Assembly: GCA_964437495.1 (NCBI GenBank)
Contig: CAYTGV010000004.1
Span: 40,413-104,412 of the forward strand
Reading direction: 5' to 3'
DNA from: an uncultured Planctomycetia bacterium
GTDB lineage: Bacteria > Omnitrophota > Gorgyraeia > B26-G9
DNA length: 64,000 nt
The translations under genes and the position numbers were made by a program. Below the pieces are notes generated by a model. That model saw nothing but the letters and a program-made list of their open reading frames with translations, was not told where the DNA came from and did not search any database. How positions within the stretch are numbered: the stretch's first letter is position 1; each line of letters opens with the position of its first letter. Of this stretch, positions 9,034-45,000 are shown in pieces.

Positions 9034-9198
9034 TAAAAGCAGCGAATAGCGGAGAGCGTTTAGCGATTAGTACAAAAGACAAAAAAAGCGGATAGAAAAA
9101 AAGGCCGCCAAGTGGGCACTTTTAAGTGGACAATGGCGAGCCTCGCCGCAGGAAACTTCAAAGAGGAAACTCGGCGGGAGGGGAAAAAATGGGAAAAT

Positions 9199-9971: not shown

Positions 9972-10054
9972 TCAAGGGACATACAGGGTTTAGAACAACA
10001 AATTTTATGGGAACAGGAACACATTCCAATTTAATTTAGAACAGGATAAAGACA

Positions 10055-10858
10055 ATGCCAAAATTCGATTTTAATTCGAAAACAAAAAGATATAATGCGA
10101 AAAATGCTTTGCTGTTAGCGGAAGCTTCACAACTAGCATATAAACCCATCCGAGAAGTGAAGGCGATAGTAAAGAGTAAATGGGGCTTCGAAGAATGCAT
10201 CTTTTTGGACAAGGAAGATACCCAAGCTTATATTATCGCTAACACTGAAGTGATTATATTAGCCTTTAGAGGGACTCAATGTATTCAGGATTGGTTGACA
10301 GATGCAGACGTGCGGCTAATTAAGGATGCCTGGGGGCAAGTGCATAAAGGATTTTCAACAGCGTTAGATTCTGTTTGGCGCGAGATTGAAAAAATTGTAT
10401 CTAAATATCAAAACAATGGCCAATCAATTTGGATTACAGGCCATAGCTTAGGGGCAGCACTGGCAGCGCTCGCGACTGCTAGGTTTTTGCAGAAAAACAG
10501 GGACATAAACGGACTGTATACTTTTGGCCAGCCTAGAGTAGGCAATGCTATATTTGCTAGAATCTTTAATTTAAGGTTTAAGCATCGAACCTTTCGTTTT
10601 GTTAATAATGAAGATATTGTAACCAGAGTTCCTCCTACCGCTTTGAAATATGCGCACATAGGCTCTGTGTATTATTTTAACAGTTTTGGAAAGCTGCACA
10701 GAGGAATTAAGTGGTGGAGAGTATTTATGGATAGTTCGATTAGTAAAATAGCGAGAACTATGGATCGCTATAATCTGTTAAGCGACCAATTTCCTAACGG
10801 GATTAAAGACCACGATATTGCAAGATATATAAAAAGAATTGAGAAAAATTTAACATGA
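10055..10858 (+). CDS. Lipase class 3 (alpha/beta-hydrolase, fungal-lipase-like)
   Basis: Nucleophile elbow ITGHSLGAALAALA with surrounding lipase_3 context; no signal peptide. The stop TGA overlaps the next ATG (ATGA). Confidence 0.7.
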   Translation: MPKFDFNSKTKRYNAKNALLLAEASQLAYKPIREVKAIVKSKWGFEECIFLDKEDTQAYIIANTEVIILAFRGTQCIQDWLTDADVRLIKDAWGQVHKGFSTALDSVWREIEKIVSKYQNNGQSIWITGHSLGAALAALATARFLQKNRDINGLYTFGQPRVGNAIFARIFNLRFKHRTFRFVNNEDIVTRVPPTALKYAHIGSVYYFNSFGKLHRGIKWWRVFMDSSISKIARTMDRYNLLSDQFPNGIKDHDIARYIKRIEKNLT

Positions 10859-12336
10859 AATATAATTTCGCGAGAATAGTTATTATAGTCTCTGCGTTGT
10901 TTTTAGTAACAGCAACAGCCTTCTGTTTTTCCGCGGATGTGCAGGATATAAGCGGCTCTAAATATTTCCCCGCCGTGCAAGAGGCTATTGCTAAATCCGA
11001 AAAATCAATAAACATGGCAATGTTTCTTATTGAACTTCCGCAGAGTGAAGCCAAGAATAAGACACAGCAATTAGTAAATGAACTGATCAAAGCGCATGAA
11101 AGAGGCGTGAAGGTCGAAGTTATTTTAGATCAGAATGTAGATTTTGTTAATCAAAGGCATGAAAGCGATTGGCTGGGAAAAGTAAGAAGTTTTCGCGCGT
11201 ACAAGCAGCTTAAAGAAGCTGGGGTAGAGGTGCAGTATGATGAAATATCTACATATACTCATGCCAAGGCAATAGTGATCGACGAGAAGATAGTTGTTTT
11301 AGGAAGCACTAACTGGACCCAAACATCATTACAACGAAGCATAGAGACTAACGTTCTAATAAATTCAGAAGAAGCGGCAAAAAGCTATTTAGAATATTTT
11401 AAGACAATTGAAATAGATGAAAGTATTGAAAAATACATTGAATTTTTAAAAAGCGGAATTGCAGTAAGTAATAAGTTTATGCAGTCAGCAAAGCTGGGTC
11501 CGGAAATGATGAAGCAACATGATGAGCGCAGTTTTGATATATATTTGTTTCTGCTAAAAGAAGCCAAAGCTAAAAACACAACAGAGCTGGTGCTAAATTA
11601 TGGGGCAATAGCGGAATATCTTGGTATCGACAAAAAGATGGATAAAATCGCCTATCGTAGGCAAATAACAAAGGTTTTGAGGAAGTTAGAAAAAAAGTAT
11701 AAATTGATTAAAGCTGATTTGCAGTACGCAAAAGACGCAAAGGTGAAACTACTTGATAGTAAAGTGGCTGCGAATAAGGTATTTCATCTACCAAAAGATT
11801 ATTTTAGTTTTGGATGGAACATGCAATTATCTATGCGGGCGAAGTTCTGTTATTTAATAAACTTTAGCGAAGCGAATATAAGCGATACCCAACCTTATTG
11901 GTCAAAGAGCGTGAGAGAAATCACCAAGACCTATGGCAATATAAGCAAGGATGTTATATCTAAAGGCATGGGTGAGTTGAGAAGAAGAAAGCTCATTGAG
12001 GTCATGTATGATGATTTAACGGATAAGGATTATAGAAAACGAAGCCCGAAGATGTATAAAGTTTTAAAAGTATATGATTCTGAAAAATTAGACCTTGATT
12101 TAGCGCGGGTAGCGGAACAATATGGAGACAAAGAATATCAAAAGGCACGGAAATACGCTGAAATAGTATTTGAAGAATACAATCCGCAGATAATAGAAGA
12201 TATAATTTTGAAAACAAAGCAATATGGGTCTAAGAAAGTCAAAGACGCGTTTGCAATTGTTGCGAAGAAGAACGTAGACAATCCGAAAAGAAAATATAGT
12301 TATGTTGTTGGGATATTGGAGAATTGGGGGGAGTGA
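10855..12336 (+). CDS. Phospholipase-D-family (single HKD motif, Nuc-like) protein with N-terminal signal peptide/TM and C-terminal wHTH-like domains
   Basis: HAKAIVIDEKIVVLGSTNWTQTS matches HxKx4Dx6GSxN. The hydrophobic N-terminus is IVIIVSALFLVTATAFCFSA. The C-terminal ~290 aa are rich in helix-turn-helix-like segments. Confidence 0.55.
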   Translation: MKYNFARIVIIVSALFLVTATAFCFSADVQDISGSKYFPAVQEAIAKSEKSINMAMFLIELPQSEAKNKTQQLVNELIKAHERGVKVEVILDQNVDFVNQRHESDWLGKVRSFRAYKQLKEAGVEVQYDEISTYTHAKAIVIDEKIVVLGSTNWTQTSLQRSIETNVLINSEEAAKSYLEYFKTIEIDESIEKYIEFLKSGIAVSNKFMQSAKLGPEMMKQHDERSFDIYLFLLKEAKAKNTTELVLNYGAIAEYLGIDKKMDKIAYRRQITKVLRKLEKKYKLIKADLQYAKDAKVKLLDSKVAANKVFHLPKDYFSFGWNMQLSMRAKFCYLINFSEANISDTQPYWSKSVREITKTYGNISKDVISKGMGELRRRKLIEVMYDDLTDKDYRKRSPKMYKVLKVYDSEKLDLDLARVAEQYGDKEYQKARKYAEIVFEEYNPQIIEDIILKTKQYGSKKVKDAFAIVAKKNVDNPKRKYSYVVGILENWGE

Positions 12337-17068: not shown

Positions 17069-17138
17069 GCGAAAGTCCTCTCGGGGGAGCCAAATATTTC
17101 TAACCATTTGCAATTAAATAAGTTGCAAGGGTCTTTTT
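17069..17138 (+). repeat. Intergenic repeat family copy 3 (variant motif + TTGCAA-palindrome terminator)
   Basis: GCGAAAGTCCTCTCGGGGGAGCCAAATATTTCTAACCATTTGCAATTAAATAAGTTGCAAGGGTCTTTTT; homologous to copy 1. Confidence 0.55.
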
Positions 17139-17165
17139 GCAAAACAAGCTAGAATAGGGTATACT
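17137..17165 (+). promoter_or_regulatory. Promoter TTGCAA-N17-TATACT for the secreted-protein gene at 17212
   Basis: TTGCAA at 17137-17142 and TATACT at 17160-17165, with TATACTTTA context shared with the promoters at 33078 and 42015. Confidence 0.4.
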
Positions 17166-17211: not shown

Positions 17212-18495
17212 GTGAAAAATTCAATTTTTATAAAAAAGCTGGTGTCGCAAATAGCAATATTGTGTGTTTTATTCGCATCGTTTCCAGTGGATACGTTGCT
17301 TTGCATAGAGACTAATAATCTTAAATATACGTTATTTGATACATTAGCTCCGCGGCTATCCATCAAAAAAGAAGGATTAACGAAGAGGGCAATTTGGGGC
17401 AAGAGCGGAGAGCTGATTTTTGATTATAAAGAGGGGGCTCCCTTCGCTTTAGAAAATAAAGGGCAGCAGATTAAAATTATTGACGATGGTGGCAGGTATA
17501 AATATTTCAACCCCGCACTGCTGCAGAATGGTATTTTACTTGCGCGGCGTATTTCTGTAGATTTTGATGCCAGCAAATCACATTCTTCAGATATTGTGAG
17601 GCTATACCCACAAGATAAAGAAGGATTGGAATTTAAAGCAGAAACAGATAAAGTGCTGGTTGCTAACGCAGAAGACCCCAGAATAATGTTTGTTGGCGGC
17701 AGATTGGCAATGACATTTGTAAGGCCAAGCATGGGAGGCACTGCTTGGAATAGTTTTTTTGTATTTATTGATGAATCTGGGAATTTAAAATCAGAACCAG
17801 TTAAGATAGGCAGGGCGGGTGTGAGCATTAAGAACACTTACCTTATTGAACTTAATGGCGATAGGATAGCATTAATTGACCGCGCTAATGTGCCGAATCA
17901 GCAACCTGCGATTCAAGCATATTTTTTTGATAATTTAGACGCTGCTTTGTCTGCTTCAGAAGGGTATTGGCAACAACACTCTATTGAGCATGCGACAATA
18001 TTAAAAGCCGCAAAAGGATGGGATCATGTGGGATTTAATACCATTGCCGCAAGAGTAAAAAGCAGGGGAAAGGATTGTCTGATGGCATTAGTGCATTATG
18101 CGAAGATTCAAGATAATGCAAACAAGATTTATCAAACCGCCGTGGTGCTGCTGGATGAAGATACATTACAGCCATTAGGCAAGCCGGAGAGTATTCATAG
18201 TATTGATCCCCAAGTATCTTTAGGAGATGTGAAAGGGGTGGTATATGAAATAGGCGCATTGGTCTATGGCGACAAGCTGGTTTCTTATGCAGGATTTAAT
18301 GATAGCCATATAATCCGTTATAAAGAATCAATAAAAAAACTTACTGCTTGGTTTTGGGAAGCGCAGGCTGCTTATGGCAGTGATAAGGAAGTAAAAGCAG
18401 GTTCTATCCCCGCGAATGAAGTGTTATTGCAAAGATTACAACAAATTTTAAATAACAAACAAGATGTTGATTCCTTCATTTTGTCATCTGTATGA
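17212..18495 (+). CDS. Secreted hypothetical protein (427 aa)
   Basis: Signal peptide KKLVSQIAILCVLFASFPVDT; no family I recognise. Confidence 0.5.
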   Translation: MKNSIFIKKLVSQIAILCVLFASFPVDTLLCIETNNLKYTLFDTLAPRLSIKKEGLTKRAIWGKSGELIFDYKEGAPFALENKGQQIKIIDDGGRYKYFNPALLQNGILLARRISVDFDASKSHSSDIVRLYPQDKEGLEFKAETDKVLVANAEDPRIMFVGGRLAMTFVRPSMGGTAWNSFFVFIDESGNLKSEPVKIGRAGVSIKNTYLIELNGDRIALIDRANVPNQQPAIQAYFFDNLDAALSASEGYWQQHSIEHATILKAAKGWDHVGFNTIAARVKSRGKDCLMALVHYAKIQDNANKIYQTAVVLLDEDTLQPLGKPESIHSIDPQVSLGDVKGVVYEIGALVYGDKLVSYAGFNDSHIIRYKESIKKLTAWFWEAQAAYGSDKEVKAGSIPANEVLLQRLQQILNNKQDVDSFILSSV

Positions 18496-31112: not shown

Positions 31113-31360
31113 GGGGGGGGGTCAAGTCTCGACCTGACTACATGCCTATTGTTTGATATAATCCATGCAAGGTAAGGTTAATTTTTTTAATAATAAAACA
31201 AATTAAAATACCAATGGCTAGACCGTTACGAATATTGTTTGAAGGCGCATATTACCATGTTTTAAATTGCGGACAGAAAATAGCTAAAGACAAGAAATTA
31301 AAGGATAAGATTTCTAGATTAGCTAAGGCAATTTGTCAATAGTTCAGACCTGACCCCACC
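31113..31360 (+). mobile_element. Degenerate IS-like remnant with inverted ends GGGGGTCAAGTC ... GACCTGACCCC and a truncated Y1-transposase fragment
   Basis: Internal ORF 31211-31339 MARPLRILFEGAYYHVLNCGQ...* matches the N-terminus of COG1943 / IS200-like transposases (PRxPRIxFxGAxYHV) and is then terminated. The right end ATTAGCTAAGGCAATTTGTCAATAGTTCAGACCTGACCCC recurs at 40015-40060. Confidence 0.4.
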
Positions 31361-31376
31361 AACTGACAAACTTTTT

Positions 31377-32681
31377 TTATTCAAGCTCTAACTCCCATTT
31401 AATAATCTCATCCTTTGCCGCACGCGTATTCGGCGCCTCAGGAACCGCCTGAACATATATATTCATATAGTTAATCGCCTGCTGGTAATCTTCTATCTTC
31501 GCGTAAACAAGCGCAATATTAAAATAAAACCTGGCAATGAACGGATCGCTGCTGATTGCTTTTTTAAATTCCACAAGCGCGGGTTTAAACTCACCTTTTT
31601 TAACAAGGGTTTCCGCTCTTATGGAATACTTGTGCGCAATTTCGGATATATTCGCAGGCTCAGACATGCGCTGGATAATCTCAAACAGTTTATCCCTTAT
31701 TTGCCCTTTACGCTCTTTACTTAAAAATATCATTGCCTTTGAATATTCATTAAGCGCTTCTTGAAATCCGCCTTTATCTTCAAACTGTCTTGCTTTACTT
31801 AAAATACTCTCTGTCTCAGGAGCAAGGGCATCAAATAATTCCTGCTCTTCGCTTATGTAAGGAATTTTTTTTAGAAATGACTCATCCCCAACAATTTTCT
31901 CCTCATACAACTTTATTGCTTTTTTAAAATCTCCTTGTCTAGCGTAGGCCTCAGCCATCAGCAACAATACAAAAACATCTTCCTGGTCTGCTCTGGATAA
32001 GATTTCTATTGCTTGCTCATAATCGCCGGTATCAAGAGTTGCCGCGCCAAACGCTTTTTTGGCTTTTGAAAAATCAGGCGCCATCCTAATCGCTTGCTCG
32101 GCATCCTGCATAGCATTATCATGTTCTCCCATTTTACGAGATATCAGGCATCTATCACTAAGCATCTTTGCGCTCTTTTCCGATTCAGGCAAGTCAATAA
32201 CATCTCTGACCATCACAAGATTAGATTTCCTTTTATCCCTTCTTACTAAAACCTTAACCTTTGCGCCTTTTTTCCCTAGTAAATTTTCCACAACCTGGCT
32301 ACCATTCTTATTTTTCATAGAAATACCGTTAATCTTGATTATTTCATCATTGACCATGGCTCCTGCTTTTTCAGCCGGTTTATCTTTAAAAATCTCGATA
32401 ATTTTCGGAAACGGCGTGCCGGGGCCAATTCGCATACCTACACCAATATATTTATTTTGTTCAATAATCTTGTCAATTTCCACAAGAGCGCTTTCATATT
32501 GCCCCATGTAATAATATGTCCCTGTATCATTGGAAGCCTTTTGTTTGCGAAAGCGCCGACTCATTCTGGCTTTGATTTTGGTCTTATCTCTAGCGTTTGA
32601 ATCACCCGCGAATATTACAGGAACAAAAACCATTTGCGCGAATAATTCTAAACATATCAAACAAACTATTACACTTCTCAT
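31377..32681 (-). CDS. TPR-repeat + PDZ-domain protein, N-terminal signal/TM
   Basis: PDZ-like block GVGMRIGPGTPFPKIIEIFKDKPAEKAGAMVNDEIIKINGISM, with multiple TPR-like helical repeats in the C-terminal half. The start is set at the Met before the hydrophobic segment (MRSVIVCLICLELFA), with a GGAGGG RBS on the minus strand. The track ORF extends to 32759. Confidence 0.55.
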   Translation of the reverse strand: MRSVIVCLICLELFAQMVFVPVIFAGDSNARDKTKIKARMSRRFRKQKASNDTGTYYYMGQYESALVEIDKIIEQNKYIGVGMRIGPGTPFPKIIEIFKDKPAEKAGAMVNDEIIKINGISMKNKNGSQVVENLLGKKGAKVKVLVRRDKRKSNLVMVRDVIDLPESEKSAKMLSDRCLISRKMGEHDNAMQDAEQAIRMAPDFSKAKKAFGAATLDTGDYEQAIEILSRADQEDVFVLLLMAEAYARQGDFKKAIKLYEEKIVGDESFLKKIPYISEEQELFDALAPETESILSKARQFEDKGGFQEALNEYSKAMIFLSKERKGQIRDKLFEIIQRMSEPANISEIAHKYSIRAETLVKKGEFKPALVEFKKAISSDPFIARFYFNIALVYAKIEDYQQAINYMNIYVQAVPEAPNTRAAKDEIIKWELELE

Positions 32682-33077
32682 AAACCCTCCCCTTAAAACA
32701 TATTTTATATAAACCGCGACCATAATATCCTTAAACATATTATACCATTTACAACTCACAAATTCTTATTTTTTTAATGACACAATTTTTATTAAAATTC
32801 ATGAGGAGATATTTTTAGCATTTACTATCTTTTTTTAACAATCTGTTTATGCTTGTCTCGTGTGTTCTAACTAGTTTCTATTAGGAAATAACCTATTAAA
32901 AACGAGTCTCAATCTGCCCCAAAATTATTTTTGATCAAACCAATAAGTAATAAAACCTACCTAATTTAAAATTTAAATAATCTGTACTAATATTCCCGAT
33001 AAAAACTTTTTATGCCTTGTTTAGAAAGTCTAGTCTGTTTATTTTGTAACTTGTTGCTATAATTATAGTTATGTCAT

Positions 33078-33106
33078 GCAATTATATTTGCAAAATCTCC
33101 GAATGC
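33078..33106 (+). promoter_or_regulatory. Promoter TTGCAA-N17-TGGTATACT for the giant repeat-protein gene
   Basis: TTTGCAAAATCTCCGAATGCATGGTATACTTTATAACC; nearly identical in architecture to the promoter at 42015-42043. Confidence 0.45.
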
Positions 33107-33182
33107 ATGGTATACTTTATAACCTTTTACAATGAATAGGTACTTATTATTTATAAAGTAGAGTTTTAACTTTAAATTAATT

Positions 33183-36100
33183 ATGAAAAGACAAAATAAA
33201 AAACCTCAAAAAATAATCGCGATTATACTAGTGCAATCATTCTTAATCAGTAATCTTGCCTGGGCCGGGACAAGTTCTGTTTTTTTAGCTAAAAATAAGA
33301 ATATAGCTACTCTTTCGCCGCAAACGATTATTAGCACAACTGCTTTTCAACAAGCTTGTGCCACTTATGCTTTTTGGAGTAAGCGTGTTCCAGGAATAGA
33401 TGCTTTGTCGCAAAAATACACAAATGCCAAAATGACTCAAGAGGCCTTAAATGCTATTCCTAAACAATACTGCACTGATTTTTATTTAAATCGAAGTTTT
33501 GTTAAAGGTGGTAATCCGATACTATATGAGGCGTGTAACCGTTTTAGCATAAAAGTTCCTAAATTAAAATATACTGATGTGCATGTAGTTTATACAAAAT
33601 TAAAAACCATACTAGAAAAAGATAGAACTGCTAAGGCCCTTAAAAGAAAAGTTAAAGATGGCGGGGATTCGAATTTATTAAAATATATTTATAAATACAA
33701 AAAAGAGTTAAAGGATATTTATGGGTTTGAATTACAAACTGATATTCAGCATGCAAAATATGATACGCCGAAAGCAGTATTTGATGCATTAATGGAAGTT
33801 CCAGAAAAAAAGCGTACTCGGAAACTGCTTGGTCGCAGCAAAGAAGATAAGGGTAATGTCACACTTTTAAGATGGTATGTAAAATTTGAAGCAGAAATTC
33901 TTAAAAAATATGATTATTATATACCCAAAGAACACACTAGCCGTCCGGCAGTAGAATATAATTCTGCTAAGGATGTTTATGATGCGTTAATGGCTTTAAA
34001 GCCAAAACAAAGAACTATGGATTATCTGGATCGCTCAGTGAAAGAAGGGGGTGACCGGAGATTATTAACGGCATATCGTAAATATAAAAAGGAAATTAAG
34101 CAAAAATATAAAATAGAAATAAAACGCCGGGAAATTGATAAGCTTTACGGAACATGGCAAGCAACATATCAAGCATTAATGCAGATCCCGGAACAACGGC
34201 GGACTACCTGGCATCTTAACCAGCCGAAATTGGAAAAGGGAAACAGGACCCTGTTAAAAGCAGCACGTGCTTTTAAAAAGCAATTAAAAGAGAAAAAAGG
34301 TTTTGAGCTGCCAGTACAGGAAAATCCGCTGCTTAATCAGTCCTTAAAATATCCTGATCCAAAATCTGTATATGAGGCTATAATTGCCCGAGATGAATCA
34401 GATCAAACTGTAAAAAGCTTAGATCGCATAATAGACGAGGATGGAGACAGAAAATTACTGGAACGTTATTATGTTTTTGAAGAGCAGATAAAAGAACTTT
34501 TTAATTATGAGCTAAAGCGGGATAAGGGTAAGTACGCAGAGACAAAAGATATTTATAATGCGATTATGGCGCGCCAACCAGAACAAAGGACTAGGCAGGC
34601 TTTAGATAAAGATAAAAAATACTTTGGAGACAGGTGTCTGCTTAAACGCATATTAGCTAAAGAAAAAGAATTACTTGAAGAATTTGGATTTGTCCTGGAA
34701 AAAGAAAAATATCAAAGGCCTTTAAAATATCCAACTCCTGAATCAGTTTATCAGGCGTTAATGGCGCGTGATTCGCAACTGCGTACAGTTGTGGCTTTAA
34801 AAACAAGCAAAGCGAATAAAGGCAATCGCGTGCTGCTTAAAGCCTATTATGAACATAAATTTGAAATCGCCAGAAAATTTCATTTTACTTTACCCAAAGC
34901 TAATGCGGCAAGTTATCCTGATTTTAAAATTACCTATAAAGCGCTGATGGAACTATCTCCGGAACTGCTTACCGCAAAAAGCCTGGATCGACCGGATCAG
35001 GAATACGGTAATAGAAGTTTGCTTAAAGCTTATCGTAAATTTAAAAAAGAATTACGTGAAACTTATGGATTTGTAATGCCCAAAGCGCAGCGTAAAAGAA
35101 TTGCAAAATATCAAACGCCGGAGGATGTCTATCAAGCAATAATGGCGCGGCCTGAAAATGAGCGGACCCAGACTAGCTTAAGGCGTAAAAAAGATGATGA
35201 TGGCGACCCGGCATTATTAAAAGAATATTATAGACATAAACAAGAGATATTTGAAAAATATGGTTTTAATTTAACGCAAGAAACAGAACCCATGTATCCG
35301 GATGGAAAAAGCACAAAAAAAGCATTAATGGAATTACCCGAAAAAGATCGCACTACCAAGCGCCTGGATGAATTAGGTTTATACTCATTACGCAAAGCTT
35401 GTAATAATTTTGAAATCCCTTTGCCAAAAGAAGAAAAGGCCTTAGATTATCCGGATCGGGAATCAGCGATTGCGGTTCTGAAAGAGATTCCCCTAAGAGA
35501 TCGTACTGCAGCGCGTTTACGCAGAAAAACAGAAGACGGGGGTAATCCTACATTATTGAATAACTGTTATAAATATGCGATTCGCTTACCTAAAGAAGAG
35601 GTAATGCAAGCCTATCCGAAAAAACAAAAAGTATTAGATGACTTAGCCAAATTATCAGAGCAAGATAAGTTGCCGAGCCGTCTTAGCCGTCAGCCATCAA
35701 AAGGAGGAAACCCTTTATTGTTTTTAGCCATCCTTGAGCATGAAATAGAGTTACCGAAAGATCAAAGAAAATATCCGAATAAGCGGCTGGCAGAAATGAT
35801 GTTAAGCCGGCTGCCGAAAAGAATGCGTACTGCTAGAATGCTCCACCCAACAAGAAATCCCTACGGAGAAGGTGATTATACGCTGTATATGCGGTGTTTA
35901 GAATTTAAAATACCTTTGGAAAGAGAACCGTCTGAATTTATTTATCCTACAGTTGAAGCAACATACAAAGCTTTAAAAGCAATACCTAAAGAAAAACGAA
36001 CCCGTACGCATTTGATGCTGCCTAAAGATACAGGAGGAGATCCAACGCTTTATAATGCATTTAAAAGATTTAGAAAAGAATTAAAACAAAAATATAATTT

Positions 36101-39059
36101 TAAGATTGAACGGGAACATGCGTGGAAATATAAAACTAAAGAACAAGCTTTAGCCGCCTTTAATGCTTTGGCGTCTGAGGATAGAACGGCGGGTAAATTA
36201 TTACGTACTAAAAAAAATAAAGGTAATTTTGCACTCTATTATGCTTGTATCAGGTTTGAAATATCCTTTGCAGAACCGGTTTCAGTAAAAAAGTATCCGG
36301 ATACTGAATCGGCCAGAGAAGGATTAATGGCACGGCCTTTGGAAAAACGTTATGCTTCGGAGCTGACAAAATTAAAAGGAGAAGGCGGTGACCCTTCTTT
36401 GTATGATGCTTGTTTAGAATTTAAGATCCCTTTACCGATAAAAGAAAAACAGGAACTAATATACAGTGATGAAAAGATTACTTTTGTGGCATTGATGGAA
36501 ATTCCGGAAGAAGAAAGATTTGTTTCTAAATTAAGCCGGCCTAAACCGAAAGGTAATCCGACTTTATTAGCAGCTTATTATAAATTCAGATCAATACTAA
36601 AAGCAGTTTACGGATTTGCAATGAAGGCGATAATTAGATCTCCGTATCCGACGCTAGAAGCAGCGCAGGCAGCTTTAGAAAAACGTCCGGAATCTGAACG
36701 TACAGTAACAGCATTGGATCAAGCTTATCCTAAAGGTAACAGAGCATTGCTCAGAGCCGCAAGAAAATTTAAAATTGAATTACCTAAAGGAAATGCTAAA
36801 CAATATCCAGATGCAGAATCGGTATATACAGCTTTAAAAAATAGAAAAGAAAAGCTTAATACATCAAAAATGCTTAACCGCCCTAGAGGTCAGGGAGGCA
36901 ATCGCACATTATTATTGGATTATTATGAACATCGCGATCAAATAAAAGAAGAGTTTAATTATGTTCTGCCGCAGGAAGAAAGAAAAGGTATGAATGCAAA
37001 ATACAAGACTCCGGAAGAGGCTCAAGCAGTATTGAATGAACGTTCTGAAGGGGAGCGTACTGCGAAAAGTTTAAGACAAAAGAAAGATGAAGGCGGAGAT
37101 TGGGCATTGTATGCTGCGTGTAAACGCTTTGGTATTAAATTAGATGATCCAAAGCCCATGCAGGCAGGTTACGATCGCTACAAAGAAGAAGTCCTTAAAT
37201 CCATGGACAGTGTGAATATAGATGTTTTTGATTATTGGCAGAGAATGCAGGAAGTAAACGCTAAAGAAAGAGATTCAAGGCGTAGCGTATTAATAGAATA
37301 TTTTATGCCGATGATTTTTAATAAAGCAGAAAACGGAAAAAAAGCAAAAGAGATTAATTTTTATAGAAATATATCTTATAACCAAGCCTATCATTATGAT
37401 GATCTGATCAATAGCGCAGTGATTGCGGTAATGGAAGCCATAGAATTTTGGCATCCGGATTTAAGTTTAGAAGAAGATAATACTGTTGAAGCGCAAGCCA
37501 GAGCGGATATTAATGAATATATAGAGGCTAAGATAAATCAAGCCATGGGCCTTGAGAAAAAAGTAATCTATCAGAATAAATGGACACATAGCTCAATTGA
37601 GACACCTTCTGGGAATAAAGGGGGGAATAATGTAAATAGTAAACCGGGTAAATTTGGCGGAAGTAATCATAAGACTTTGGGTGATACCCTCAAGAGTGAA
37701 GCGGAGTCTGTTGATAATACTATATCGCGTTTTGAGAAAATGCAGGAAGTTTTAGAGAATTTCAAAAAAGCAGATTACAGTTTTATTCAGAGTGCGATTA
37801 ATACACTTGATTCTGAGACAGCAGCAAATTTTGATTTAGATGAAAGTCTGCTTTTAAGTAAAGCAGAAAAGCTTAATTTTCAAAAAGATTTATTAGCATA
37901 TTGTAATAAAAAAGATATTTTAAAACATATCCCTGGAAAGTTTTCGATTTGGCTGATGGGCAGCTTGGGGAATATTGGCCTTGCGCGAAAGGGATTAAGT
38001 GATGTGAATATATTGATTGTAACTGATGCTCCAGAAAATAGTTTAAGGCAAACGATCGTGGATATCAGAACCGCAATTGGTAGCGGGTTAATAAAAGTCG
38101 GTAAAGATGGTAATGTTACTTTAGAAATAGGCAGAGATGATGATTATCGGGATATGGTGTTTAATGCGCAGGATTTCTTAACGCTTACGGAAAGATATGA
38201 TCTGGGAAATCAAGAAAAAGGGATTGCTTCGATTGAGATTGTATCTGTAAACACAGCTGATGCGGGTAGTAACCGTGCAATCCATAGAGCGCAGTTTCAT
38301 TTAACTGAAGATTTATATCAAATGGGTGAAAACGCGGCGTTGATCGCAGAATCACAACCCGGCGTTGCCCAGCAGACAAAAGATGAATTTAAACAAAACA
38401 TTGCTATGGGCAATCATGATTATTTATTCTTTATGAATGATTATTTAATGGGCTTTTTTATGAAACAAGTACGTAAAGTAATTGCCGCGCATAAATTTGC
38501 GCACCCGGGAAAAGGGAAAACAAAAACAGTTAAGCCTGAAGCAGTAATTAAAATTGAACCCGGTTCAATAATTAAATTTCCTAAACCTAAAATATCCTGG
38601 ATATCTCCCAATCAAGTTAAATTGGGAGAAACAATTGTTAATGTGATCAGAAACAATGGTTCGCTGTCCATTCAATTAACTGGAGTTTTAACTGAAGGGG
38701 TTGATTCTTACCAGGAATTTTGGCAGCAGGTCGCAAAAGATTTTGATGGTAAAGAAATTTTTGTTGATGATCCGGAAGTTGACACAAATAATATTAACCC
38801 GGCAATGCTTGTGGCTATAGAAGAGCAGACTGATCAGATCTGTGATATTTTAGCGAATCAGGCAGAGGCTTTATATGCAGGAGAAGCTGTCTTGCGGCGT
38901 ATTGATCATGATCCTGATTTCTCGGATATTAAAGTGTTAGAATTTCAGGAAAATGATAAAATGATGGCAATGTTAGCTTCGACTCTAAAAGATAAATCCT
39001 TAAAGAAAAATAATTTTAATTTGCAGGCAGAACCAAAATTAATCGAGCAGGCCATTTAA
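33183..39059 (+). CDS. Giant (1958 aa) signal-peptide protein: ~19 tandem ~65-aa repeats, sigma70-region-2-like segment and C-terminal nucleotidyltransferase-like domain
   Basis: Signal peptide IIAIILVQSFLISNLAWAG. Repeat unit YP(D/T)xESVYxALMxxPExxRTxxxLxRxxxxGGNxxLLxAYxKFKxELxxKYGFxLP. The segment RNISYNQAYHYDDLINSAVIAVMEAIEFWHPD resembles sigma70 region 2 (DLIQEGNIGLMKAVEKFDP). GSLGNIGLARKGLSDVNILIVTD fits the minimal nucleotidyltransferase motif hG[GS]x9-13Dh[DE]h. Confidence 0.6.
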   Translation: MKRQNKKPQKIIAIILVQSFLISNLAWAGTSSVFLAKNKNIATLSPQTIISTTAFQQACATYAFWSKRVPGIDALSQKYTNAKMTQEALNAIPKQYCTDFYLNRSFVKGGNPILYEACNRFSIKVPKLKYTDVHVVYTKLKTILEKDRTAKALKRKVKDGGDSNLLKYIYKYKKELKDIYGFELQTDIQHAKYDTPKAVFDALMEVPEKKRTRKLLGRSKEDKGNVTLLRWYVKFEAEILKKYDYYIPKEHTSRPAVEYNSAKDVYDALMALKPKQRTMDYLDRSVKEGGDRRLLTAYRKYKKEIKQKYKIEIKRREIDKLYGTWQATYQALMQIPEQRRTTWHLNQPKLEKGNRTLLKAARAFKKQLKEKKGFELPVQENPLLNQSLKYPDPKSVYEAIIARDESDQTVKSLDRIIDEDGDRKLLERYYVFEEQIKELFNYELKRDKGKYAETKDIYNAIMARQPEQRTRQALDKDKKYFGDRCLLKRILAKEKELLEEFGFVLEKEKYQRPLKYPTPESVYQALMARDSQLRTVVALKTSKANKGNRVLLKAYYEHKFEIARKFHFTLPKANAASYPDFKITYKALMELSPELLTAKSLDRPDQEYGNRSLLKAYRKFKKELRETYGFVMPKAQRKRIAKYQTPEDVYQAIMARPENERTQTSLRRKKDDDGDPALLKEYYRHKQEIFEKYGFNLTQETEPMYPDGKSTKKALMELPEKDRTTKRLDELGLYSLRKACNNFEIPLPKEEKALDYPDRESAIAVLKEIPLRDRTAARLRRKTEDGGNPTLLNNCYKYAIRLPKEEVMQAYPKKQKVLDDLAKLSEQDKLPSRLSRQPSKGGNPLLFLAILEHEIELPKDQRKYPNKRLAEMMLSRLPKRMRTARMLHPTRNPYGEGDYTLYMRCLEFKIPLEREPSEFIYPTVEATYKALKAIPKEKRTRTHLMLPKDTGGDPTLYNAFKRFRKELKQKYNFKIEREHAWKYKTKEQALAAFNALASEDRTAGKLLRTKKNKGNFALYYACIRFEISFAEPVSVKKYPDTESAREGLMARPLEKRYASELTKLKGEGGDPSLYDACLEFKIPLPIKEKQELIYSDEKITFVALMEIPEEERFVSKLSRPKPKGNPTLLAAYYKFRSILKAVYGFAMKAIIRSPYPTLEAAQAALEKRPESERTVTALDQAYPKGNRALLRAARKFKIELPKGNAKQYPDAESVYTALKNRKEKLNTSKMLNRPRGQGGNRTLLLDYYEHRDQIKEEFNYVLPQEERKGMNAKYKTPEEAQAVLNERSEGERTAKSLRQKKDEGGDWALYAACKRFGIKLDDPKPMQAGYDRYKEEVLKSMDSVNIDVFDYWQRMQEVNAKERDSRRSVLIEYFMPMIFNKAENGKKAKEINFYRNISYNQAYHYDDLINSAVIAVMEAIEFWHPDLSLEEDNTVEAQARADINEYIEAKINQAMGLEKKVIYQNKWTHSSIETPSGNKGGNNVNSKPGKFGGSNHKTLGDTLKSEAESVDNTISRFEKMQEVLENFKKADYSFIQSAINTLDSETAANFDLDESLLLSKAEKLNFQKDLLAYCNKKDILKHIPGKFSIWLMGSLGNIGLARKGLSDVNILIVTDAPENSLRQTIVDIRTAIGSGLIKVGKDGNVTLEIGRDDDYRDMVFNAQDFLTLTERYDLGNQEKGIASIEIVSVNTADAGSNRAIHRAQFHLTEDLYQMGENAALIAESQPGVAQQTKDEFKQNIAMGNHDYLFFMNDYLMGFFMKQVRKVIAAHKFAHPGKGKTKTVKPEAVIKIEPGSIIKFPKPKISWISPNQVKLGETIVNVIRNNGSLSIQLTGVLTEGVDSYQEFWQQVAKDFDGKEIFVDDPEVDTNNINPAMLVAIEEQTDQICDILANQAEALYAGEAVLRRIDHDPDFSDIKVLEFQENDKMMAMLASTLKDKSLKKNNFNLQAEPKLIEQAI

Positions 39060-39159: not shown

Positions 39160-39233
39160 GGGGCAGGTCTGGCCATAGACAAATCTTATTAGTTTATGAA
39201 TATTTCGTTAATAGTTCTGACCTGACCCCATAA
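39160..39233 (+). mobile_element. MITE-like mini-element with the same inverted ends as 31113-31360
   Basis: GGGGGCAGGTCTGGCC ... TAATAGTTCTGACCTGACCCCA. Confidence 0.3.
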
Positions 39234-39518
39234 CTTACTACTGTGGAAAGCTCATTTTATCGTTAAATCTCGTAGTACCTGATGAAAATCCTGTTCTAGA
39301 ACCGGCAACAATGTTATTATTGGGCAGCGGCTTGGCTGGATTAATTGCGATAAAAAGGAAAAAAATATAATAGCGTAAAATTTGATATTTTTAAAGGGCG
39401 CTTCAGGGCTTCAGGGTTGAGGAGCTCTTTTTATTTTTTTATGTATTTCAATCAAGTGTTTTGTAAATTTTTAATGTGTGTTATAATATATTTATTATAA
39501 GGAAAGGAAGAAGCAGAA

Positions 39519-39974
39519 TTGATAATACCCCAAAGGTTAAAAGAATTATTAGAAAAGGCAGATTGGATATGTCTTGCAACTCGCAATCAAAGTGGACACC
39601 CAAATGCTGCGAATAAATTTTTACTTCAATGCGAAGATGAGCATGTGTTAATTGTTGATTTTGTGCATGGAAGCACTCTTGATAATATTCTACATTATCC
39701 CAAAGCATCATTTGCAGTAATTGATTTAGAGAACTTGATTGATTATCAATTTTTTGGTGAGGTTGAAATTATTAAGGAAGGTCAGCTTCATGAGAAATTA
39801 ATAAACTTTTTAGAGGAAAAACATGCGCGATTTTCAACAAATAGGATAATTGAGGGAATTAGAAGGTCGAGAAAATTTAATAATAATGTATTGCCAGATA
39901 CTGATGGTGCAGTTATATTGAAAATAAATATAATGGATATTGTAGTTCGTGGGCCTAGAATAGAGATTAAATAA
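39519..39974 (+). CDS. Pyridoxamine-5'-phosphate-oxidase-like (FMN-binding split barrel) family protein
   Basis: 151 aa with TTG start and GGAAAGGAAG RBS. WICLATRNQSGHPNAANKFLLQCEDEHVLIVDF resembles the PNPOx-like fold. Assignment is weak. Confidence 0.3.
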   Translation: MIIPQRLKELLEKADWICLATRNQSGHPNAANKFLLQCEDEHVLIVDFVHGSTLDNILHYPKASFAVIDLENLIDYQFFGEVEIIKEGQLHEKLINFLEEKHARFSTNRIIEGIRRSRKFNNNVLPDTDGAVILKINIMDIVVRGPRIEIK

Positions 39975-40014
39975 TAAAATTGATAAAGACAAACAGCCCA
40001 AGGAGATAATTTTA

Positions 40015-40060
40015 TTATTAGCTAAGGCAATTTGTCAATAGTAGAGACCTGACCCCCCGC
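40015..40060 (+). repeat. Third copy of the IS-remnant right end
   Basis: ATTAGCTAAGGCAATTTGTCAATAGTAGAGACCTGACCCC; 38 of 40 nt identical to 31318-31357. Confidence 0.45.
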
Positions 40061-40753: not shown

Positions 40754-41809
40754 TTGATGAATGATTTAAACAGCGATCCGATTAAGCCCAAGCGTCGTGT
40801 CCGGTATAAGGGTGCGCATCCTCGTAATTTTTCTGAAAAATATAAAGAACTTAATTTTGAGAAATATCCTGAGGATGTTGATAAAATTATTCTATCAGGC
40901 AAAACTCTGGCAGGCACACACCGGCCGATCTGTGTAGATGAAGTAATAGATGTTTTGAAGCCCATGCCAGAGCAGATTGGATTAGATGTGACATTAGGCT
41001 TTGGCGGGCATTCCCTTGAGCTGCTGAAAAGGATTATGCCTGATGGCAGATTGTTTGCTTTAGACATTGATCACTTAGAGCTTGCGCGTACACAGAAGCG
41101 CCTGCGTGCAATGGGATTTAGCGAAAGGGAATTAATCATTAAACATAGTAATTTTGCCGGAATGTATAAATTATTAGGTGAAGTTGGGGGAGGTTTTGAT
41201 TTTATTTTCGCTGACCTGGGAGTATCATCAATGCAGTTAGATAATCCTGCGAGGGGGTTTACATTTAAGAGAGAAGGGCCGTTAGACCTGCGGTTTAATC
41301 CTGAGCGTGGCCGACCGGCAACAGCATTGATCAGAGATTTAGATGAAAGGCAGCTGGAGGCATTGTTCATGGGGAATTCTGATGAGCCTTGCGCTCGGGT
41401 GATTGCCAAAGCGGTTTTTAAAAATAGCAATAAGATTCACAAAACAACGGATTTGGCTAATGTTATTGCCTGTGCTTTGGGCGCAAAATCGTGGCGTGAA
41501 TGCGGGATAAAAAGGAAAAATTCTATTCGTCGTGTTTTTCAGGCATTGCGTATTGAGGTCAATGATGAGTTTTCTGTGCTTGAGCAATTTTTAAGAAATC
41601 TGCCTTTTTGCCTGAAGCCTCAGGGACGTGTTGCGGTATTGAGCTTTCATCCCGGTGAGGATAATCGTATTATTGATTTTTTTGAACAAGGCCGGATTGC
41701 GGGCTTATATTCAGATATCAGCAGTAAGCCTGTTCGTCCAAGCGCAAAGGAACAATCTGCTAATCCGCGTTCTCAAAGTGCCAGGTTGCGCTGGGCAGTA
41801 AAGAAATAG
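40754..41809 (+). CDS. rsmH: 16S rRNA (cytosine1402-N4)-methyltransferase RsmH (MraW)
   Basis: HRPICVDEVIDVL, GLDVTLGFGGHS, ADLGVSSMQLDNPARGFTFKREGPLDLRF, FQALRIEVNDEF and VAVLSFHPGEDNRI match the RsmH blocks. It has a ~50-aa N-terminal extension. Confidence 0.8.
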   Translation: MMNDLNSDPIKPKRRVRYKGAHPRNFSEKYKELNFEKYPEDVDKIILSGKTLAGTHRPICVDEVIDVLKPMPEQIGLDVTLGFGGHSLELLKRIMPDGRLFALDIDHLELARTQKRLRAMGFSERELIIKHSNFAGMYKLLGEVGGGFDFIFADLGVSSMQLDNPARGFTFKREGPLDLRFNPERGRPATALIRDLDERQLEALFMGNSDEPCARVIAKAVFKNSNKIHKTTDLANVIACALGAKSWRECGIKRKNSIRRVFQALRIEVNDEFSVLEQFLRNLPFCLKPQGRVAVLSFHPGEDNRIIDFFEQGRIAGLYSDISSKPVRPSAKEQSANPRSQSARLRWAVKK

Positions 41810-42014: not shown

Positions 42015-42043
42015 TTGCAAATACTGTTTGGTTGTGGTATACT
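42015..42043 (+). promoter_or_regulatory. Promoter TTGCAA-N17-TGGTATACT for the 1674-aa secreted protein gene
   Basis: TTTGCAAATACTGTTTGGTTGTGGTATACTTTAATATC. Confidence 0.45.
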
Positions 42044-42097: not shown

Positions 42098-45000
42098 ATG
42101 TTTAAATTAGTTCGAAAATCGACACAAATGAAAATCATCAGTTTTTCCCTTGTTCTGCTTTTTATGTTTAGTCCATGCTCTGTGGTAAGTGGCAGTGAAG
42201 TAAATGCCTTGCCCCAGGAACCTCAAAGAGTCAATTTAGCCCCTGCACTTGAACTGTATAATAATACGCTTGCAGATATGTTTATGCTGCATGAAGGCAT
42301 GAAGAGAGCTTCAGGAAAAGTCGCAAAACAAATAAGCCTGGATGATAAGAAGAAGATCGAAGCTTGGATTAAACAAGGAATTTTTAAAATATTACCCGCA
42401 GGAGAAACGATCGAAGGGCAGGACGAAAATGTTATAGGTTATTCTGAGGGTTTATTGTTTAGCGATGAAGAGAAAGGCTTAATTAATAAGAAGGGTATTT
42501 TTATCTATGATGTCGACAAGACATTAGCTAAGCGTGACAGAGCCTTGCTTGAGCAAACAATACAAACCATTGAACGCTTGATGAGAAACGGTCATATGGT
42601 AGTGATCATTACCGGTCAACCTATAGACATACAGCGTGAACGTATAGTTACTCCGATAGATGCTGGATTGCGTCGCAATTTAGTTGTAATTACTAATGAA
42701 GGAACTGTTGCTCACCATTTTCTGCCAGGAGGAGAAGAGTATCTGGTAATGAACGATTTCACAAATCAATTTACTTTTACTGCTCAGCAGGCGCAGGTTA
42801 TGGAAAATATGTTTGATGGGTTTATGGATGAAAATGGATTTGAATATGCAGACGGAGGAGAATTTGACCCACGAGAAATGGCTCAAGCGGCCATTAAGCT
42901 TGAAGCCACTCTTGAGACCAGAGAAAGATATGCAAGGGAGCTGGAAGATAAGCTTAAAGCAAATGGAGTGGAAGGATTTAGAGGCTGGGCAAGCGGTTCG
43001 ACAACAATATCATTCTTGCATAAAAAAGCAAATAAACGGGATGCAGGATTAGGGTTTTTGAAAAACGAAGGGTTTTTCATGGATAAAGCGGTTTATCACG
43101 GAGATGAATTTTTCTATAATGGTAATGACGCTTTTATATTAGGAGATTCGGATATTTATGTTGCAGTAGTGGGACGATTAGAATCTAAGCCATTTACAAT
43201 CATGATAGATGGGAAGCCTCAGGAAATTTCATTGCAAGACAGGGGCAGAACTTTATACCTTGGCGGAGGCCCTTATGCGACAACACACTTTGCTGATGAT
43301 TTTTTAAATGAAAAAAGAAAACAAAGAGGCAAAGGAAACTTTCACGCGATAATCGCAGAGGTAGCGACAAAAAATACAAACATAGAAGCAATTGTTGCGC
43401 AGATTGAAAAAGAGTATAAAAATCCACATGATATGCTGAGCGCTTTGCTTGAGAGCTGGATTATTGAGAATACATGGCTGCATGAAACTCTGCAAGAGAT
43501 ATTAGCTGAAACCCAACCACAACAAGCAATGCCGGCATTAGATCGCCTGGACATTGAAAAACTTCGTGATTTGAAAATTATCTGTGAAGAGTATCGGGTG
43601 GGTCCCAAGACTATCTCTTTGCTGTATGCGCAAATGTTTGGTGCGAACATACAAGCTGATTACAAAGAGCTTGTCGAAATAATGAATTCTGAACTACAGG
43701 GTGAAACTCCTGTGAAATATGACGTGGGCTTGAATGCGTATAAATTAAGAAATGCACTAGTTGAATTTTCAGATTTAATTGCTGTTTTGGTAGGAGAAGA
43801 TATCGGCGGTGGCGTAAAGGACTCAGTTGAAAAACTTACAGGTCAAGATCAGGTGTTTAGGTATTCAGAAGAAAGACGGGAGTATGCACTTAGCGCTGTA
43901 AAGGGAAAAATCAATGACTCAGTTAAAGCTTTAAATATGTTTTTTGATGATCAGGGTTTGTTTAGCTGGCTGCTTGCAGCTTTTGGAAATAAGCTTAGTG
44001 TGTTTCATCAAAATTATGAGTTTGAACAATTATATGCTCCGGTAGAAGATGTGTTAAACGAAATTGCATCAGATACTGCGGAAGAAATTTCTCAGGGGCT
44101 TGTGGGATTAAGCGGCGGTGGCGGGGCTCAGATAATGTCTGAGATTATGCTCAAAGCTGAAGTACACAGATTATTGCTGCCGATTGCCAAAACCATGCCT
44201 TTTATCATGATTGTTCCCTCAGAAGATGACGGAGGAAGCACGGCGATAATTCTTTATGACGGCAAAAAAGAACATCGGTTTATTTTTCCGGCCATGGGTG
44301 ACTCAATGAATGCTTATGCAGGATTAAGCCGGGGAGAGCTAAATAGTTTTGGAGATCCTAAGTTTCCTTATTTTTATGATGTGACCCGCACAAGATTTTC
44401 CTTAGAAGGAAATGACTCTCTTATGCTTGAATTTGGCCAGCTTGCTTTTGAGCAAATGCAGGGTCTTATGTATAAACGTGCGCCGATGGAACAAAGAAAA
44501 AAGGTCATAGAATTTTTTAAAAGCCTTCACGTGGTTTTAAAGGAGTTTGACCTGATGCCGATAGAAGGTCAAAGCATGGGTAATATGATGTGGCTTGCAA
44601 CTGCAGATCGAAAGGCACAAATAAAAAGCAAGCACAAGCCAAGGGAGATGAGAAAACTTGGAGATGATCAGTTGGTAGAGGTGCAAAAATATCTGGCAAA
44701 AATATATGGATTGGGAAATATGATGGTTTTGCCTTCTAATCTTTCTCCGGGTACATTGTACGCGACTTTGGATAAGATTGTGGTTCAAGAGGGTAAACAC
44801 AGTCCTGAATTGCTTGAGAACAAAGGGCGTTTTAGAAATAAAAAAATTGCTGCGGCCGGAAAAACCTTTCAAATTTCGGAATCACCCGCACAAATAATAG
44901 ATAAGGATCAAGGACATACTTTTGTGGATTATGATATCGAAGAAGGCGCAGAGCTTATCATTTCGCATCAAAATAAAGAGATCCCTCTTGGCGGCAAGAT

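Follow-up and report, generated by a model that had tools for sequence, protein, structure and literature searches.

Most of the very long proteins of Omnitrophota combine a signal peptide and/or transmembrane (TM) helices with enzyme domains of the cytoplasmic type (10.1101/2023.11.21.568195; 10.64898/2026.06.07.730766). Neither of these two studies mentions sigma or nucleotidyltransferase (NTase) domains, and neither describes the repeat or the leader that are considered here. We analyzed a gene in a 64,000-nucleotide (nt) stretch of DNA from an uncultured Planctomycetia bacterium assigned to Omnitrophota by GTDB (Gorgyraeia, B26-G9), hereafter the window (assembly GCA_964437495.1, contig CAYTGV010000004.1, forward-strand positions 40,413 to 104,412). 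The analysis confirmed that the gene encodes a real protein of 1,958 amino acids (aa) that consists of a leader, 21 basic helical mini-domains, and a C-terminal part with a sigma2-derived, an NTase-like, and an alpha/beta domain (Table 1).

The open reading frame (ORF) delineated in an earlier note, which was made from the DNA sequence alone, was reproduced exactly, including its strand, length, and ATG start. The product is 100% identical to a database protein (P0001), the public entry of which carries no name or Pfam annotation, and the whole protein matched no family in Pfam and NCBIfam at E <= 0.01.

Repeat array

An iterative hidden Markov model (HMM) search seeded with one repeat converged on 21 copies between aa 78 and 1320 (per-copy E values of 1e-16 to 1e-28) that start 51-68 aa apart. 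An HMM built from the repeats of the orthologue P0003 alone recovered all 21, and 200 composition-preserving shuffles of the protein produced no repeat match. The earlier note had counted about 19 divergent repeats; the tandem array is present, but there are 21 units of 51-68 aa. These belong to two length classes, long units that end with "...ELKxKYGFxLP" and short ones that end with "FxIxLP". The consensus derived from 59 units of three proteins is xY[PS][TD]xExxYxALMxxPExxRTxxxLxRxxxxGG[ND]xxL[LY]xA[YC]xxFxxxL, where one Leu and one Gly are invariant, and a Tyr as well as a second Leu occur in 98% of the units. Conservation is concentrated in core hydrophobic residues, structural glycines, and an R-T helix cap; the variable surface positions are rich in Lys and Arg. 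The array carries a net charge of +82 (isoelectric point, pI, of 9.6), and the three C-terminal parts are acidic, each with a pI near 5.

No tandem array was detected at the DNA level by Tandem Repeats Finder, which reported only three trivial rows of 8-11 nt, and a DNA repeat search within the gene returned only 33-nt matches with 67-82% identity. Paralogous units share 31% identity on average, compared to 40-69% between orthologous units (P0001, P0002, and P0003), and the unit order is collinear, with unit i of the window protein pairing with unit i+1 of P0003 and unit i-5 of P0002. Because the order is collinear and orthologous identity exceeds paralogous identity, the array predates the divergence of the source organisms, and its units have been individually maintained. 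These values, together with the loss of any repeat in the DNA, bear out the proposal in the earlier note that the array is old.

The same note did not recognize the repeat as a known family, and our searches of Pfam, NCBIfam, and the PDB agree. When the 59 units were scanned singly against Pfam at E <= 10, only scattered one-off matches appeared, and the repeat profile matched only designed helical repeats among PDB sequences, at the chance level (E >= 0.01). No significant fold match was found for either the unit or the array. An AlphaFold2 (AF2) model of four repeats, with a mean predicted local distance difference test (pLDDT) score of 87.7 and a predicted template modeling (pTM) score of 0.36, confidently depicts each unit as a separate four-helix mini-domain on flexible linkers, in a predicted beads-on-a-string arrangement. 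Derivation of the repeat from the sigma-like region described below was rejected (hhalign probability 0.2%).

The FIVAR/GA modules of Ebh, as well as DUF1542, form helical-bundle repeat stalks in giant Gram-positive surface proteins. The array resembles these stalks in that small all-helical domains are arranged in tandem, as an elongated string, in a protein with a signal peptide. It differs from them in lacking any sequence similarity (neither family appeared in the Pfam scans of the 59 units), in the strongly basic character of its units, in its extended linkers, indicated by the pTM of 0.36, instead of a rigid rod, and in ending in a cassette of intracellular type rather than a wall anchor.

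C-terminal cassette

The C-terminal part beyond the repeats comprises 635 aa. Used as a single sequence or as a three-sequence profile, it retrieved nothing significant from Pfam or the PDB, and a word-index search identified only three close relatives. An exhaustive HMMER search of 1.84 billion cluster representatives yielded 36 proteins, 29 of these at E <= 1e-10, mostly 1.3 to 7 thousand aa long. These proteins, which come from metagenomes, make up a rare and hitherto undescribed family of uncultured diderms. No relative was found by scanning 185,579 species-representative genomes with the C-terminal profile, and a pattern scan of viral contigs and Joint Genome Institute (JGI) metagenome contigs detected no relative of the module. 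Neither the repeat nor the module occurs a second time in the window. The NTase-like core (profile positions ~215-425) is the part of the module that is conserved in all 36 clusters; the preceding helical region is retained in about a dozen members and the following alpha/beta domain in about ten. Copies of the 60-aa repeat are usually located directly N-terminal to the module, and one relative (P0005, 3,538 aa) contains the complete unit of array and module twice. Several members are mosaics with additional domains: methyltransferase and DUF4147 (P0007), FBPase and Metallophos (P0009), CheR, Sigma70_r2, PPDK_N, and HTH (P0026), YcaO (P0036), PTA_PTB (P0021), or HEAT repeats (P0015).

For the first ~215 residues of the module, we built a profile from an alignment of 12 sequences (A6). 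Compared with PDB sequences, this profile gave 72 matches, the best 60 of which are all RNA polymerase (RNAP) sigma factors. The best match is a 278-aa sigma factor (E = 5.2e-5), followed by SigK, RpoS, SigF, RpoD, FliA, and SigA. Sigma regions 1.2-2.3 align with profile positions 22-122, in register with all six of the named factors; the profile extends for another ~100 residues, and only sigma2 (PF04542) aligns. The conserved pattern, (GD)xxARxxLIEYFxPxV...DDLxxxAxLAxxEAIDxWxP...LxxYxxxKIxxA, mirrors regions 2.1-2.3 and is represented in the window protein by RRSVLIEYFMPMIFNKAEN (aa 1366-1384), YDDLINSAVIAVMEAIEFWHPD (aa 1405-1426), and INEYIEAKINQAM (aa 1443-1455). The second of these segments had been singled out in the earlier note as resembling sigma70 region 2, a resemblance that the profile matches show not to be spurious. 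On their own, 2 of the 12 members reached Pfam Sigma70_r2 (E = 0.005); the window protein alone did not. Sigma factor chains were also among the top Foldseek matches of the poor C-terminal model. A similarity of this segment to HATPase/DesK (E = 0.04) was discarded, being superseded by the consistent sigma matches obtained with the deeper profile.

There are also clear differences from sigma factors. The domain is embedded in a 1,958-aa protein with a signal peptide, a 20-30-residue insertion separates the 2.1-like and 2.2-like helices, and an NTase-like domain follows in place of regions 3 and 4. A sigma4 domain, responsible for -35 recognition, is not detectable: at E <= 10, neither the window protein nor any of its close relatives matched Sigma70_r4 or r4_2. 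Judged by these alignments, the domain derives from a sigma factor, but, with no sigma4 domain found, the protein itself is not one. As seen by eye, the family consensus does not retain the region 2.3 aromatics of primary sigma factors, which several alternative sigma factors lack as well. The Gly/Asn-rich linker that follows the domain resembles sigma region 3.2 by eye, and the alignment is collinear but not significant (-0.3 bits). In the AF2 model, this linker is disordered.

The NTase-like core was delineated from an alignment of 35 copies, which share the motif hhhGS[LM]GxhGxAxKGxS[DN]hNhhhh[TS]D (h, hydrophobic residue; x, any residue) followed by IGKxGxY, GxA[TS]IExVS, and RxxFH. In the window protein, a helix (alpha1, aa 1559-1580) precedes the beta1-GS-loop-beta2 segment FSIWLMGSLGNIGLARKGLSDVNILIVTD (aa 1587-1615, with G1593, S1594, D1607, and N1609), and IGRxxxY (aa 1647-1658), GIASIE (with E1685), and RAQFH come further downstream. 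The signature at the end of beta1, hG[GS], is present (G in 32 and S in 33 of the 35 copies), G44 of the GSxG loop is found in all 35, and the spacing of 12 residues from GS to D falls within the expected 9-13. The position of the first carboxylate is occupied by Asp in 29 copies and by Asn in 6, and that of the second by Asn in every copy, so that the [DE]h[DE] pair that defines NTases is never complete and the motif reads D-h-N. A Glu in the A[TS]IE motif (E1685; 33/35), a possible counterpart of the third carboxylate of NTases, lies on a predicted strand in a model with a mean pLDDT of 51. The predicted topology is alpha-beta-loop-beta-alpha-beta-beta, with pLDDT of ~80 for module residues 240-330.

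The core was compared with the Pol-beta-type minimal NTases (MNT and kanamycin nucleotidyltransferase, KNTase; NTP_transf_2 PF01909, DUF294 PF03445, and Polbeta PF18765). The spacing helix-beta1-G-S-loop-S-D-h-x-beta2 and the topology are shared, and weak Pfam matches were obtained to DUF294 (4/35 members, best E = 4.9e-4) and NTP_transf_2 (2/35, E = 0.013). The top Foldseek list consists mainly of NTases (CCA-adding enzymes, Cid1, CutA, Tam41, 3c18, AAD(9), and MntA; best E = 0.05), and hhalign comparison with a KNTase sequence placed alpha1, GS, and SD-x-E in register (P = 0.005, probability 7%). In contrast to these enzymes, Asn invariably takes the place of the second carboxylate and, in 6/35 copies, also that of the first; the profile of the core gave no match to PDB sequences, and the extra motifs IGKxGxY, GxA[TS]IExVS, and RxxFH are present along with a family-specific helical extension (YLFFMNDYL...). 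Thus, NTase ancestry appears likely, and the Asn present in all copies suggests a site that is conserved but departs from the classical one. The minimal NTase motif proposed in the earlier note, GSLGNIGLARKGLSDVN (within aa 1587-1615; LMGS corresponds to aa 1591-1594), is in its predicted place, in canonical register with KNTase and in weak agreement with Pfam and Foldseek, but its second acid is replaced.

The alpha/beta domain that follows contains four strands, a helix, a strand, and a helix in the AF2 model (pLDDT ~70). Foldseek matched it to STAS-type proteins, namely RsbV and RsfB, with probabilities of 0.84-0.97 and non-significant E values (0.09-0.44). The profile of this domain (alignment A9) had no match among PDB sequences, and its identification as a STAS anti-sigma antagonist is accordingly unsupported by sequence. 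The protein ends with a short tail: the pattern LI(E/A/G)x(A/S)(I/L) closes the sequence of seven relatives that have a true C-terminus, and no such tail follows the internal module copy of P0005. In P0002-P0006 and P0016, the C-terminal sequence is ...[DN]LIEQ[AS]I-COOH. The tail may be a recognition signal; the divergently transcribed neighbor encodes a PDZ and TPR protein, and C-terminal tails are ligands of PDZ domains.

One relative (P0018; 3,947 aa), encoded in an ordinary diderm chromosome (RuvABC, EF-G, LptFG, and KdsA/B), bears on the origin of the cassette. It has a signal peptide, a complete N-terminus, one copy of the module, a HAD hydrolase domain, and, above the gathering thresholds, canonical Pfam Sigma70_r2 and Polbeta/NTP_transf_2/MTPAP-like NTase domains; Sigma70_r4 and r4_2 matches have whole-protein scores over the threshold. 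Given that this protein of the same kind pairs a canonical sigma with an NTase domain, the cassette of the window protein is best read, from its sequence, as a divergent descendant of such a pair. Stand-alone genes for sigma factors of the extracytoplasmic function (ECF) type (Sigma70_r4_2/r4) adjoin those of P0018 (L086 20011-20619) and P0015 (L091 205-849); there are none beside the giant gene of the window.

N-terminal leader and genomic surroundings

The N-terminus has the n-, h-, and c-region features of a predicted cleavable Sec-type signal peptide: MKRQNKKPQK, with five K/R in the first 10 residues, then IIAIILVQSFLISNL, then AWA/G (the slash marks the putative cleavage site). Its 18-residue hydrophobic core has a Kyte-Doolittle value of 1.92, and there is no other TM-like segment in the protein. 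All relatives in which an in-frame stop upstream of the start confirms a complete N-terminus (P0003, P0005, and P0018) have a signal peptide. In P0002, the annotated start is too far downstream, and an upstream non-ATG start restores the signal peptide (L003 4788-4850; LKLKRSYKKAYKLISIVLLQA-MLVSQLAWAG). The A-x-A-type sites are conserved (AWA/G, SMA/G, and AWA/A). These features and their conservation agree with the signal peptide suggested in the earlier note. A cytoplasmic location of the module, as could be surmised from four relatives without a signal peptide (P0008, P0010, P0021, and P0026), was rejected because these ORFs are open to the contig edge and hence truncated; two others (P0009 and P0036) start within 56-70 nt of a contig edge. 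Kyte-Doolittle counts of TM segments, used to place the module in multi-TM relatives, were dropped as they gave contradictory topologies.

The signal peptide is part of a longer leader (~aa 1-60) that is shared with other proteins. The motif [TN]L[AS]P, which occurs five times in the 20,341 residues of the 72 window ORFs, is located at aa 43-46 in exactly three window proteins, those encoded by the giant gene, by a second giant gene, and by a GH130-like gene (17212-18495). On the contigs of the relatives, 16 large ORFs have an N-terminal hydrophobic segment; 7 of them contain the motif at aa 37-45 and two others its variants CLAP or SLSP, and the motif is missing from all 43 ORFs that lack such a segment. 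The box also lies at aa 37-47 in the complete N-termini of P0003, P0005, and P0031 and of large signal-peptide proteins on their contigs. In a 13-sequence alignment of leaders (33183-33362, 42098-42280, and 17212-17390 in the window; loci L001, L003, and L084), the consensus is KIIxxxLxQxFL...A...TLSPxxxxxxxxFQ, with invariant L and P. The Gln occurs in the contexts LLQAML, IIQAFL, and ILVQSFL, and the box, [TSC]L[SA]P at aa 37-47, is often followed by ...FQ. NCBIfam did not recognize the leader region, and a literature search returned nothing relevant on such a leader motif or on giant proteins combining sigma and NTase domains. The leader looks like a lineage-specific sorting or processing signal, and it lends further weight to the idea that the protein is routed for export.

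The three window genes with this box are also those preceded by the element TTGCAA-17-TG(G)TATACT. Identical copies of TTGCAA-17-TGGTATACT are located at 33088-33116 and, before the second giant gene, at 42015-42043; a third copy (17137-17165), with one mismatch, precedes the GH130-like gene. Three matches to TTGCAA-N17-TG(G)TATACT were found, against 0.05 expected by chance. Upstream of the two giant genes, the similarity spans ~90 nt. The earlier note had proposed a strong promoter of the same type for both giant genes; the element is indeed identical before the two, but given that a one-mismatch copy precedes an ordinary GH130-like gene, it is not specific to giants.

A short repeated intergenic element, ending in GACCTGACCCC, occurs three times in the window (0.02 expected). 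Its copies, with the end TAGTTCNGACCTGACCCC, flank the giant gene together with the PNPOx-like gene and are reminiscent of repetitive extragenic palindromic (REP) sequences or miniature inverted-repeat transposable elements (MITEs). At 39160-39230, an imperfect inverted copy, GGGGCAGGTC, was noticed by eye ~50 nt upstream of the element. The repeats described in the earlier note as insertion sequence (IS) remnants bracketing the gene are thus present, but their origin from an IS is unproven, there being nothing that links the element to one, and no evidence of a transposase was found for it. Just downstream of one copy is an orphan PEP-CTERM sorting tail without a gene body; a stop codon directly precedes it, which identifies it as a gene remnant.

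The second giant protein combines a signal peptide and the leader with a HAD-IIB hydrolase domain (aa 135-353) and a CofD/YvcK-like domain (aa 1061-1200), and most of its sequence is unannotated. Upstream of the first giant gene are genes for YcaO and a haem peroxidase. Pfam and NCBIfam scans of the window proteins revealed no secretion-system, immunity, or transposase genes adjoining it. Elsewhere in the window, a plus-strand cluster (6751-12336) encodes a protein with a Shedu SduA_C domain (6751-7800), a papain-like C1 peptidase (9126-9971), a class-3 lipase (10055-10858), and a phospholipase D (PLD)-like protein (10855-12336), and looks like a defence or effector island. The Tex protein of the source organism shares at most 60% identity with any species representative; its top matches (56-60%) come from metagenome-assembled genomes labelled Gastranaerophilales, Endomicrobiales, and Omnitrophota and so do not point to a single phylum.

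Table 1. Features of the giant gene, its product, and the surrounding region (window positions)
Feature	Position	Strand	Basis or remark
Promoter-like site TTGCAA-17-TATACT, TG-extended -10	33088..33116	+	67 nt upstream of the ATG
Coding sequence, 1,958-aa protein	33183..39059	+	ATG start
Signal peptide, aa 1-28, MKRQNKKPQK-IIAIILVQSFLISNLAWA/G, Gln within the h-region	33183..33266	+	Sequence features
TLSP box, aa 43-46, within leader (~aa 1-60)	33309..33320	+	13-sequence alignment
21 divergent repeats, aa 78-1323	33414..37151	+	Unit of 51-68 aa
Sigma70 region 1.2-2.3-like (sigma2-like) domain, ~aa 1345-1460	37215..37562	+	12-sequence profile
Gly/Asn-rich linker S[IL]xxPxGNKGGNN...TL[GE]D, aa 1471-1503	37593..37691	+	Conserved A6 columns S147, P151, K155, D177
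NTase-like core, aa 1536-1765	37788..38477	+	35-copy alignment, AF2 model, weak Pfam matches
C-terminal alpha/beta domain, ~aa 1800-1900; NNGSxS, FW, IxxDDP, QTD	38580..38882	+	Alignment A9: invariant I, D, P, Q, D
Extreme C-terminal tail LIEQAI-COOH	39039..39056	+	C-termini of relatives
Short repeated intergenic element ending GACCTGACCCC	39204..39230	+	Other copies 31277-31357, 39976-40056; 27-81 nt
Orphan PEP-CTERM sorting tail VPDENPVLEPATMLLLGSGLAGLIAIKRKKI, then stop	39275-39370	+	25.1 bits against TIGR02595 (cutoff 16)
Terminator-like hairpin, then T-run	39405..39428	+	First such site downstream of the gene
Divergent PDZ+TPR protein gene	31377-32759	-	Neighbor, divergently transcribed
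PNPOx-like protein gene	39519-39974		Neighbor
RsmH gene	40754-41809		Neighbor
Second giant gene, 1,674 aa	42098-47122	+	Neighbor

Possible function and comparison with other giant proteins

Tentatively, we favor an exported modular scaffold or effector as the explanation, in which the array would serve as a flexible polyanion-binding tether and the acidic head would act by binding, rather than by transcription initiation or two-metal transfer; we regard this as possible but short of probable. The lineage-specific leader would carry the protein across the inner membrane of this uncultured diderm; it combines a putative Sec-type signal peptide, the h-region of which contains a Gln, with the TL[SA]P box ~15 residues past the A-x-A site. 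The 21 independently folded basic mini-domains would then form a long flexible string, plausibly tens of nanometres in length, that would act as a tether or spacer with a probable affinity for polyanions such as envelope polymers or nucleic acid. The acidic C-terminal cassette, with its sigma2-derived helical domain, linker, NTase-like domain with D-h-N...E, and alpha/beta domain, would be the functional head, probably descended from canonical sigma70 and NTase pairs such as that of P0018. Because the second metal-binding carboxylate is always Asn and there is no sigma4 domain, the head would be expected to bind a nucleotide, a nucleic acid, or a protein partner, with no promoter recognition or classical two-metal nucleotidyl transfer.

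Several observations weigh against this scaffold model. Sigma and NTase-type domains normally function in the cytoplasm, outside of which no nucleoside triphosphates (NTPs) are available. A net charge of +82 would be expected in a nucleic-acid-binding protein more than in an exported one. One relative (P0015) has an internal start and, as read from that start, lacks a signal peptide, and the localization is predicted from sequence features of the signal peptide. The AF2 model of the C-terminal part is poor (mean pLDDT 51), and every fold match for it is non-significant. Finally, the invariant Asn together with the Glu could equally mark an unusual, active catalytic site.

This last point underlies the explanation that the protein is an active enzyme with a variant NTase center (D1607/N1609/E1685) that would nucleotidylylate or otherwise modify a protein or polymer, with the sigma2-like and alpha/beta domains selecting the substrate and the array positioning the enzyme. 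In copies that are only ~25-30% identical, N1609 and G44 (both 35/35), E1685 (33/35), and GS (32-33/35) are conserved as strictly as an active site would be, the weak Pfam matches are to NTase families, and the cassette accompanies enzyme domains in the mosaics (HAD, methyltransferase, FBPase, YcaO, PPDK_N, and PTA_PTB). We nevertheless consider such activity unlikely: the [DE]h[DE] pair is never complete, even the first Asp is Asn in 6/35 copies, the NTase profile has no match in PDB sequences, and an exported protein would have no supply of NTPs. Moreover, P0018 keeps a separate canonical Polbeta NTase beside the module, which suggests that the two are non-redundant. It also seems doubtful that the hydrophobic segment is an uncleaved anchor of a cytoplasmic protein associated with nucleic acid or RNAP, the polybasic domains of which would bind DNA or RNA and the sigma2-like domain of which would dock on the beta-prime clamp helices, so that the transcription machinery or the nucleoid would be tethered or sequestered at the membrane. 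Five K/R residues precede the hydrophobic core and two are found in the 15 residues after it, a distribution that, by the positive-inside rule, would place the bulk of the protein outside. The A-x-A-type cleavage sites are conserved, the leader is common to a GH130-like enzyme and a Trypsin_2-like protein, both typical exported cargo, and there is neither a sigma4 domain nor any significant DNA-binding fold that could be detected.

Export combined with cytoplasmic-type domains would also be compatible with an effector that an episymbiont or predator delivers into a host or prey cell, where the sigma2-like domain would compete for the RNAP core and the NTase-like domain would bind or modify a target. 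The layout, with a leader, a long repeat stalk, and a C-terminal head, resembles that of polymorphic toxins, the extreme C-terminal tail is conserved, and Omnitrophota giants with signal peptides have been interpreted as extracellular and prey-directed (10.1101/2023.11.21.568195). However, there is no secretion-system gene, immunity gene, or toxin domain beside the gene, the module is internal rather than C-terminal in many relatives, and RNAP binding by the sigma2-like domain is hypothetical, which makes this scenario very unlikely. We attach a similarly slight probability to the idea of a new class of secreted "sigma-mimic" effectors, exported by a dedicated route that depends on the leader, the polybasic bead arrays of which would bring the head to or into a target cell, where it would engage the RNAP core or nucleotide signaling.

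Long and giant proteins of uncultured bacteria are mostly "dark matter" of annotation. For these, three searchable building blocks are now defined: the ~60-aa basic four-helix repeat, the cassette of sigma2-like, D-h-N NTase-like, and alpha/beta domains (~36 clusters), and the lineage-specific leader. The leader, being shared by many large proteins, suggests that they undergo a dedicated step of sorting or processing, and it could be used to predict the exported proteome of these organisms; if this is true, it would be a previously unrecognized N-terminal protein-sorting signal in an uncultured lineage. A sigma-factor domain in an apparently exported protein is unusual and makes the extracellular status of the giants, which has been doubted in the literature, directly testable.

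Compared with the very long Omnitrophota mosaics with signal peptides or TM helices, in particular the "tandem-repeat scaffold" and "multi-enzyme" classes (10.1101/2023.11.21.568195; 10.64898/2026.06.07.730766), the window protein shows the same combination of a signal peptide, a long internal repeat array, old as judged from its nucleotide sequence, and domains of the cytoplasmic type in a protein with predicted export. It is likewise accompanied by a second giant with a signal peptide and HAD and CofD-like domains, and its family consists of mosaics of 1.3 to 7 thousand aa that include methyltransferase, HAD, FBPase, PPDK_N, and YcaO domains. It differs in size, with its 1,958 aa being far under the range of at least 10-30 thousand aa on which both papers focus. 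The general phenomenon is already described for Omnitrophota, and the components that are new here are the repeat domain, the sigma2/D-h-N cassette, and the leader.

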